The notes beneath the pieces are model-generated. The model made no database searches. It was not told where the DNA came from and saw only the letters and a list, made by a program, of their open reading frames with translations. The position numbers and the translations under genes are program-made. This document shows positions 18,505 through 20,036 of a stretch of 64,000 nt of DNA, in pieces. The stretch is taken from the NCBI RefSeq assembly GCF_058153355.1, contig NZ_CM177019.1, one strand, 5' to 3'. Within the stretch, counting starts at the first letter, position 1, and every line of letters starts with the position of its first letter.

Positions 18505-19671
18505 TCACACTGATGGACGTAAACGAACGCGTAACCAGCTGTATCCAATTACCGCCGAAGAGATAGAACCGACCAGGATACCGAGTTTCGCCCAGTTAAT
18601 CAGTTCTGGATCTACGCTACCAAAGGCCAGGCTGGCAATAAAGATAGACATAGTAAAACCGATACCGCACAGGATCCCCACCGCCATAATTTGCTGATAA
18701 GTCGTTCCCTCAGGCAGATGCGCCAGTTTCAAACGCAGCGCCAACCAGCAGAACAGACTAATCCCCAGCGGTTTGCCAATCAGCAAGCCAGCGATGATCC
18801 CCAATGGCAGAATGGAGGTCAAGCCATCCAGCGTGACGCCTTGCAGTGAAACGCCAGCATTAGCAAATGCAAACAGCGGCAAAATCAGATATGCCACCCA
18901 CGGGTGCAACACATGCTCCAGTCGCTTCGCTGGAGAACGCCCATGCTTCTCTTTCAAAGGAATAAAGAAGCCGACAATTACCCCCGCCAGTGTTGCGTGA
19001 ACCCCCGATTTCAACACCGCAGTCCACAACACCACACCAACCAGAATATAAACGCCCGTGCGGCGTACACCACACAGATTCAGTACCGCGAGTACGGCAA
19101 TTGCAACGGCCGCGACGCCAAGAGAGGCCATCGATAAGTCATTAGTGTAGAACAAAGCGATGATAATGATGGCCCCAAGATCGTCGATAATAGCCAGCGC
19201 CATCAAAAAGATCTTCAGCGCTAACGGAACACGACTTCCCAACAGCGCCAGCACACCAAGCGCAAATGCAATATCTGTCGCCGCCGGAATAGCCCACCCT
19301 TCGCGGGTAATCGGATCGGCATAGTTAAAGGCAAGATAGAGTAATGCCGGAACAATCATCCCACCAATAGCGGCGATAACTGGAAATGCGGCCTGCCGTA
19401 AGCTGGCTAGCGATCCTTGCATCAGTTCACGTTTAACTTCCAGACCGACTAACAGGAAAAATACCGCCATCAGCGCGTCATTTATCCATAACAGCATGTT
19501 TTTGTTGATTTCGAGTGAACCAACCCGGAGCTGAACCGGCGTCTCCAGAAAGTCGTGATACCATCCACTGGTTGCGCCGCTATTGGCCATAATCATCGCC
19601 AGGATAGCGGCAATGATAAGAATAATGCCTCCCGAGGCATCACTGCTAAAGAATCGATGCAGATGTTTCAC
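18505..19671 (-). CDS. nhaA: Na+/H+ antiporter NhaA
   Basis: 388 aa, [31 protein letters not shown]... Confidence 0.95.
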
Positions 19672-20036
19672 TTTTTATTTCTCTTTCAGGTGAATAGATC
19701 GTTTTTACTATTTTATCCCGCACAAATCATCGTTAAAATCAGATTATAGTGTAGGAATAATTCGTTTTTTACGAGCCATTGAAGGATTTGCGTCATCAGT
19801 GATGAGATGAGTTTTTGACGGCTGTAAGAATAATGCCTCCCGAGGCATCACTGCTAAAGAATCGATGCAGATGTTTCACTTTTTATTTCTCTTTCAGGTG
19901 AATAGATCGTTTTTACTATTTTATCCCGCACAAATCATCGTTAAAATCAGATTATAGTGTAGGAATAATTCGTTTTTTACGAGCCATTGAAGGATTTGCG
20001 TCATCAGTGATGAGATGAGTTTTTGACGGCTGTAAG
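19617..20036. repeat. perfect tandem direct duplication, 2 x 208 bp, covering the nhaA 5' end and upstream region
   Basis: 19621..19828 is identical to 19829..20036 (aataatgcctcccgaggcatcactgctaaagaatcgatgcagatgtttcac ... gagtttttgacggctgtaag), with 4-bp taag microhomology at the junction. Copy 1 holds the first 17 nhaA codons plus ~157 bp upstream; copy 2 abuts the IS left end. Confidence 0.9.

Follow-up and report, generated by a model that had tools for sequence, protein, structure and literature searches.

In the window, a 64,000-nt stretch of contig NZ_CM177019.1 (RefSeq assembly GCF_058153355.1) analysed here at its full length, a perfect 208-bp tandem duplication covers the start of nhaA, the gene for the main Na+/H+ antiporter, together with its upstream region and ends exactly at the left end of a copy of the insertion sequence (IS) ISSso6. 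Our analysis supports assigning this array to a recurrent class of polar tandem duplications that are anchored at an IS end, and we consider it likely that the array arose as a by-product of ISSso6 transposase action at the left end of the element. We scanned 41 complete ISSso6 copies (246,455 bp; loci collected by a search with ISSso6 and by exact-protein look-up) with BLAST and Tandem Repeats Finder (TRF). Seven tandem arrays with a period of at least 50 bp were found in these 246,455 bp, all seven abut an ISSso6 end, and none lies away from ISSso6 ends. The arrays come from five independently deposited assemblies. A sequence-only reading of the window had left the origin of its duplication open between replication slippage, an IS-mediated rearrangement and an assembly artefact; the six further duplications at ISSso6 ends, found in four other assemblies, largely settle this question for an IS-mediated event, which is favoured because the same architecture recurs at each of these six ends. 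A literature search for IS110 elements with tandem duplications returned nothing that describes an end-anchored duplication class.

The array in the window and the states of its locus

We determined the structure of the array by repeat search, TRF and direct string comparison. Two head-to-tail copies of 208 nt occupy positions 19617-19824 and 19825-20032 with 100% identity and agree letter for letter; TRF reports 19617-20036 with period 208, 2.0 copies, 100% matches and a score of 840. The total length of 420 bp corresponds to 2 x 208 bp plus the 4 bp TAAG. Because TAAG both opens the unit and precedes the IS, 4 bp of ambiguity are left in the register, and one of the possible registers places the end of the second copy at 20036, directly before the first base of ISSso6 at 20037. 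TAAG is found at 19617-20, 19825-28 and 20033-36 and thus represents microhomology at the array joints; the last two bases of 20033-36, AG, probably act as the crossover core. The IS boundaries were set against the empty site of E. coli 2013C-4282 (locus L002), which reads ...GACGGCTGTAAG/CGCTGACATG... (here and below, the slash marks the crossover). The left breakpoint of the duplication, which we call the pseudo-site, is GATAAG/AATAATG (19615-19627) in codon 17 of nhaA, with the crossover after the AG at 19620. It ranks third in target-likeness among the 34 AG sites within 600 bp. The right flank of the element, CGCTGAC, is not repeated, and the 208-bp repeat sits on the left side only. Neither TRF nor self-BLAST detected other large repeats in the 64-kb window.

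These results agree with the sequence-only reading in its description of two identical head-to-tail copies that each hold 17 nhaA codons and about 157 bp of upstream sequence (exactly 157 bp in our analysis), and in placing the end of the second copy at the IS start, which holds against the empty site within the 4-bp register ambiguity. The 27-codon nhaA' open reading frame (ORF) that it had proposed is recovered by translation of 19796-19879. Its statement that IS110-family elements make no long target duplication is in line with published work (PMC11187229) and with the insertion flanks in the window, TAAG / CGCT, which contain no flanking direct repeat.

Comparison with related genomes recovered both the empty-site and the IS-only state of the locus, and the duplication junction in none of them. 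The window aligns collinearly with E. coli 2013C-4282 (~98.5% identity) and differs from it only in (i) the duplication with ISSso6 and (ii) an IS621 insertion. ISSso6 at exactly the nhaA site next to a single 208-bp segment is found in five complete E. coli genomes (including L001), where the record spans 793 bp (1001 minus 208); L025 and L053 likewise combine ISSso6 at this site with a single segment. Sequences diagnostic for the duplication junction are GGCTGTAAG/AATAATGCC and GACGGCTGTAAGAATAATGCCTCC. A 40-mer across the novel junction, queried such that a match requires a junction-spanning word, was matched in none of the 5,426 complete E. coli genomes, and exact scans for a 24-mer of the junction gave no match in the GTDB species representatives and the JGI metagenomes. 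The lineage of the window is represented elsewhere by three short-read assemblies (L015-L017), retrieved via the 414-aa protein encoded next to the IS, of which L017 shows 100% identity across 4,260 bp. The contigs of all three confirm the IS and stop at or in its right end, so that the duplication is not visible in them.

Recurrence of duplications at ISSso6 ends

All seven events are perfect tandem duplications that end exactly at an ISSso6 end. Two of them duplicate the left flank and end at the left end of the element, with units of 208 bp in the window and 299 bp at L023 (GCA_031665325.1). The other five are internal and end at the right end: at L003 (E. coli VL40 pINV) the whole IS is followed by its last 339 bp again, at L004 (FDAARGOS_943 chromosome) the whole IS is followed by its last 106 bp again, and units of 205, 161 and 518 bp are present at L023, at L024 (same assembly as L023) and at L036 (E. 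coli 53638), respectively. L003 and L004 were noticed through extra aligned pieces in the ISSso6 search. Besides the nhaA site, two of the affected sites are also occupied by ISSso6 without duplication: the L023 site (nupG/speC) in L019, L027, L037 and L041, and the L036 site (ubiC) in L040 and L055.

The events follow common rules. The IS terminus forms one end of the array, within the microhomology, in 7/7 cases, and at the second breakpoint an AG stands immediately 5' of the crossover in all seven (GATAAG/, GCAAAG/, CGTTAG/, AGAAAG/, CGTGAG/, ATATCAG/ and GGCAG/), a dinucleotide that is expected by chance in ~1/16 per event. Microhomology at the second breakpoints comprises 2-7 bp on the left side and 0-4 bp on the right side. 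On the transposase-sense strand, the duplicated DNA is located 5' of the junction in every event (7/7; by chance p ~0.008), and the mirror-image classes, in which the 5' part of the IS would be duplicated from the left end or the right flank from the right end, were not seen among the seven events. Every novel joint can be written as the left half of the real junction up to AG, joined to the right half of the second site. Given AG, scoring with a target weight matrix places the second sites above the remaining AG sites within 600 bp (Fisher combined p ~0.009), and their identity to their own junctions is not significant (p ~0.24).

All events affect ISSso6 copies with 100% identity to that of the window (6 of 12-14 identical copies vs 0 of 27-29 copies with at least one single-nucleotide difference), a comparison that is inflated, as the window, L003 and L004 were found through their duplication. 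Either a recently active master copy or biased sampling may underlie this confinement to identical copies.

Several further arrangements were observed at or near ISSso6 sequences. In three of the five right-end duplications, the second breakpoint falls at a guide-like or end-like motif or a few bases from one (GTTAG/CGCT, CGTAAGAAAG/ and ATATCAG/CGTG). At L039 (S. boydii CDC 3083-94, CP001063.1), positions 2383-2454, a 36-bp perfect tandem duplication crosses the left ISSso6 junction. Its unit consists of GTAAG and IS bases 1-31. As this array stops elsewhere than at the IS terminus and its second breakpoint lacks an AG, we assign it to a class other than the seven events. Two loci carry ISSso6-like sequence without transposase. 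L045 (601-879) is a solo 3' module of 284 bp from a bovine E. coli with 90% identity to IS positions 1235-1518, and L046 (601-1026) is a widespread degenerate remnant beside IS66 remnants, in which IS positions 899-1237 are joined to 1434-1520. No AG-type joint is present at the inner boundaries of these two modules.

Proposed origin and competing explanations

We propose the following sequence of steps for the window. ISSso6 would first have inserted site-specifically at GTAAG/CGCT, 161 bp upstream of the nhaA start codon. In a second step, its transposase would have cut the transposase-sense strand just after the terminal AG of the junction between flank and left end, and the freed end would have joined, or primed synthesis from, the AG site 208 bp upstream (GATAAG/AATAATG) on sister or template DNA. 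The interval would in this way be copied twice, leaving an array that ends exactly at the IS. Two versions of the joining step can be formulated: (a) an RNA-guided, one-ended exchange of strands, in which the junction would react with an off-target site that contains AG on the sister duplex, so that one product would carry a duplication and the other a deletion, and (b) slippage of the ...AG-3'OH primer terminus of the proposed copy-out reaction to an upstream AG microhomology, followed by re-copying of the interval. We tentatively prefer version (b), because it accounts for the one-sided polarity and for the missing reciprocal deletions. Version (a) better fits the mild target-likeness of the second sites and the AG/CG matches in three right-end events; it is weakened by the lack of reciprocal deletions, and we regard it as rather doubtful.

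The chemistry assumed in this scheme follows recent work on the IS110 family, whose transposases are reported to act mainly on the top strand and to copy the element out, with the 3'-OH of the flank priming resynthesis (bioRxiv 10.1101/2025.10.25.684509). In the same study, single junctions of the types LT-RD and LD-RT are reported to be transferred directly to new targets. The ISSso6 events resemble this scheme for CazIS110-1 / IS621 in that the top strand of a single junction between IS and flank would react with another site. The joints observed here, LT-nRT in the left-end events and LD-nRT in the right-end events, are of the types that the scheme predicts, and the 3'-OH of the flank is the primer terminus of copy-out there. 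The two cases differ in partner and outcome: CazIS110-1 / IS621 junctions react with a genuine new target and give a new IS copy, whereas the ISSso6 events, known from sequence alone and belonging to an IS1111-group element, involve a weak AG site 100-520 bp away and give a local tandem duplication. The second precedent is ISPpu9, for which alternative minicircles and tandem copies of the 3' RNA (ssr9) module have been described (PMC12288879). Its use of alternative end-like sequences, its sub-element circles and the tandem 3' RNA modules of some strains resemble our five right-end duplications. In ISPpu9, conserved A/A' and B/B' boxes delimit modules of fixed length, whereas the ISSso6 duplications vary in length, have breakpoints defined only by AG and weak similarity, and include host flank (nhaA).

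A different comparison is offered by the target-site duplications of DDE transposons, which measure 2-14 bp and are present on either side of the element. They share with the array in the window a direct repeat of host DNA beside a mobile element, and differ from it in that the repeat here is 208 bp long, tandem and restricted to one side.

Several points weigh against an origin by transposase action. The sample is small, comprising seven events, three of which (window, L003 and L004) were found as anomalies. Internal duplications occur at none of the best places in 56 plasmid records with near-full-length (at least 80%) ISSso6, and the event is therefore infrequent. Reciprocal deletion products were not found. 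Four truncated ISSso6 copies (L028-L031) were rejected as such products, since in every case the truncation is due to another IS, in L028 an annotated IS911-family element and in L029 an annotated IS21-family element. For the mechanism, the precedent comes from a preprint that deals with an element of the IS110 group, and ISSso6, as a member of the IS1111 group, would be understood by analogy. The breakpoint in the window is weakly target-like beyond TAAG, its right half matching 2/7 bases. The array in the window is known from the assembled sequence, and short microhomology is also left by ordinary slippage.

Among the rival explanations, adaptive amplification of the promoter survives best, and we consider it unlikely. 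Here, the IS 161 bp upstream would have impaired nhaA and a second promoter copy would restore it, the mechanism of origin being secondary. The unit takes in all of the proximal upstream region, each copy including a perfect TATAAT, and a reciprocal deletion would destroy nhaA, both of which are compatible with selection, as is the control of nhaA by an NhaR/Na+-dependent P1 and a sigma-S-dependent P2 promoter (PMC6307784). Strains that bear the IS without the duplication are common, however, and in five of the seven events the duplicated DNA is confined to the 3' part of the IS and includes no host gene; the class can therefore be explained without selection. Selection may have helped the copy in the window to persist.

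An assembly or finishing artefact, in which a contig ending at the IS was joined untrimmed to a piece starting 208 bp earlier, appears quite unlikely. Besides the reliance on assembled sequence mentioned above, the short-read contigs of the same lineage do end at or in ISSso6, and none of the other genomes and metagenomes searched contains the junction. Yet seven analogous arrays are present in five assemblies of independent projects, their lengths vary from 106 to 518 bp, and they show AG microhomology at every join and a single polarity, neither of which a contig overlap would respect. This matters for curation: a perfect duplication beside an IS resembles an assembly error and tends to be 'fixed', whereas the recurrence argues for biology.

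Microhomology-mediated, RecA-independent slippage yields tandem duplications, and slippage between two TAAG sequences 208 bp apart, coinciding with the IS end by chance, could account for a perfect head-to-tail copy, for microhomology of 2-7 bp and for a size of 0.1-0.5 kb. The 4-bp microhomology at the junction, a 6-7-bp hairpin (ATGCCTC..GAGGCAT) 3 nt from the left breakpoint and the perfect identity, compatible with a recent slip, are in its favour. A random duplication end would fall within 2 bp of any of the four IS ends of the window with a probability that we estimate ourselves at ~1e-3, and yet the coincidence recurs six more times. Slippage should be independent in position of mobile-element ends, whereas 7/7 arrays abut an ISSso6 end and the 246 kb hold no large tandem repeat elsewhere; it also gives no reason for a constant AG dinucleotide or for the 7/7 polarity relative to the IS. 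We judge this explanation to be very unlikely. A duplication that came first, with ISSso6 later entering the intact target at its right edge, is most improbable of all: the target GTAAG/CGCT would survive a duplication, but this order needs a chance match between the duplication end and the cleavage point of an absent IS, no genome searched has the duplication without the IS, and the right-end events duplicate IS DNA and so cannot predate it.

If transposase action is the origin, as we consider likely for the window, polar end-anchored tandem duplications might be a footprint that RNA-guided IS110/IS1111 transposases generally leave in vivo, a generalization that we put forward with reserve. 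A top-strand nick after the core dinucleotide would then leave a 3'-OH that misprimes or moves to a nearby core-containing site. There is dispute over whether these transposases cut the element out or copy it out and whether their action is limited to one strand, and a polar class with a constant core dinucleotide represents natural evidence that bears on the question. Should the generalization be true, public genomes would already record support for top-strand/copy-out chemistry. It would also bring to light a hitherto unlisted off-target outcome of bridge/seek-RNA recombinases, namely local duplications that include host promoters and gene starts such as those of nhaA. IS110/IS1111 elements are the source of the bridge/seek-RNA recombinases under development for genome editing, and local duplications as a possible by-product are relevant to the safety of these tools. 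For host biology, an IS that makes no target duplication can still duplicate the promoter and gene start of the main Na+/H+ antiporter.

ISSso6, nhaA and neighbouring features

Features of the array, of ISSso6 and of nhaA are collected in Table 1. Copies identical to the element in the window are annotated ISSso6 in RefSeq. The precomputed Pfam matches for the exact 375-aa transposase define its domains, and its RefSeq name is 'IS110-like element ISSso6 family transposase'. The inverted repeats lie 4 bp inside each ISSso6 end, and TTGACA is located at 21535-40, near the right end. The 3' non-coding region contains a long stem with 20-nt arms (21307-26 / 21474-93) and folds far better than shuffled sequences (z = -4.7). 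Within it, GUUAGCG (21347-53) is complementary to the right target CGYTAAC if G-U pairs are allowed, and CGUAAG (21386-91) equals the left half-target. A scan of 19400-21800 against Rfam at E<=1 matched no family. The domains, the subterminal inverted repeats and the absence of a target-site duplication are hallmarks of the IS1111 group, whose members encode a seekRNA in their 3' region and make no target duplication (PMC11187229); the folded 3' region of ISSso6 is a candidate for such an RNA.

From 18 distinct insertion sites, many of which are terminal repeats of IS66-family elements, we derived the ISSso6 target (G)TAAG/CG(Y)(T/A)(A)(A)C. An AG directly before the crossover is common to the target (GTAAG/CG) and to the joined ends (TCAG/GCAG), and by analogy with the CT core of IS621 we infer that AG is the core dinucleotide of ISSso6.

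Table 1 Coordinates of the array, ISSso6 and nhaA in the window
Feature	Position	Strand	Description
nhaA coding sequence, intact	18505..19671	-	388 aa, GTG start; Pfam Na_H_antiport_1
Ancestral left breakpoint (pseudo-site)	19611..19630	+	GCAATGATAAG/AATAATGCC, nhaA codons 17-20
Copy 1 of unit	19617..19824 (start 19617-19621 by register)		Contiguous with full-length nhaA; codons 1-17 and 157 bp upstream
Perfect TATAAT	19743..19748 (copy 1), 19951-19956 (copy 2)	-	-77 to -72 from nhaA GTG
nhaA' mini-ORF	19796..19879	-	27 codons: 18 NhaA residues, then 9 new
Novel junction made by the duplication	19809..19848	+	...GACGGCTGTAAG/AATAATGCC...
Copy 2 of unit	19825..20032		100% identical to copy 1; nhaA' start and second nhaA upstream region
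TAAG microhomology	20033..20036		Common to unit start and left half of ISSso6 target (GTAAG/)
ISSso6	20037..21556	+	1,520 bp, IS1111 group of IS110 family; no target-site duplication; 2-bp AG boundary ambiguity
Left subterminal inverted repeat	20041..20054		TATGACTTTCCGTG; partner 21539-21552; 14 nt, 100% complementary
Transposase gene	20162..21289	+	375 aa; DEDD_Tnp_IS110 (PF01548) and Transposase_20 (PF02371)
3' non-coding region	21290..21556	+	267 bp (5' side 125 bp); candidate seek/bridge RNA
Right half of ISSso6 target	21557..21570	+	CGCTGACATGTGAC

The consequences of the duplication for nhaA can be predicted from the arrangement of the copies. The exact NhaA protein is widespread (73,241 blocks in the public collection), and its GTG start codon is found at 19671 in copy 1 and again at 19879 in copy 2, both on the minus strand. 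ISSso6 now lies 369 bp from the nhaA start codon, vs 161 bp without the duplication. The putative NhaR-dependent promoter plausibly lies within the unit. The gene would retain one intact copy with its proximal 157 bp, including TATAAT, and is predicted to gain a second upstream promoter region. The distal promoter copy would first transcribe the nhaA' ORF and then read into the proximal copy. The 18 NhaA residues of this ORF correspond to the 17 codons of copy 2 and the junction codon, which is again Leu.

The nhaA-upstream site GGCTGTAAG/CGCT, 161 bp from the GTG (20032-20036 / 21557-21563), is a recurrent ISSso6 insertion hotspot (window, L001, L025 and L053), and the occupied site is found with three right-hand contexts: a sulfatase island, mokC-dnaJ and an IS66-family element. 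The gene adjoining the right end of the IS in the window (21651-22931, minus strand) encodes a 414/426-aa protein with no Pfam hit on record, for which RefSeq gives only the name 'IS1/IS1595 family N-terminal zinc-binding domain-containing protein'. Its exact sequence occurs in five contigs only, all of the lineage of the window, and the 426-aa form is not on record.

The window contains a second IS110-family element, an IS621-family copy at 35873-37150 (+/-2 bp), with a 326-aa transposase encoded on the minus strand at 35978-36958. It sits in a repetitive extragenic palindromic (REP) sequence between yaaA and yaaX, at the target ATCAGGCCT/ACG on the IS strand, with a CT core. No tandem duplication lies beside this copy. 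The IS621 copy is absent from E. coli 2013C-4282, and its exact transposase variant is known from one 1.2-kb contig.

To the left of nhaR, at ~14986-17502, fimbrial chaperone/usher genes are pseudogenised. Look-up of a 99-aa ORF from this region returned only more distant relatives, without the IS. This ORF and one of 175 aa result from the splitting of a 319-aa ORF of E. coli 2013C-4282, and the 99-aa form is found in ~206 blocks of the public collection.

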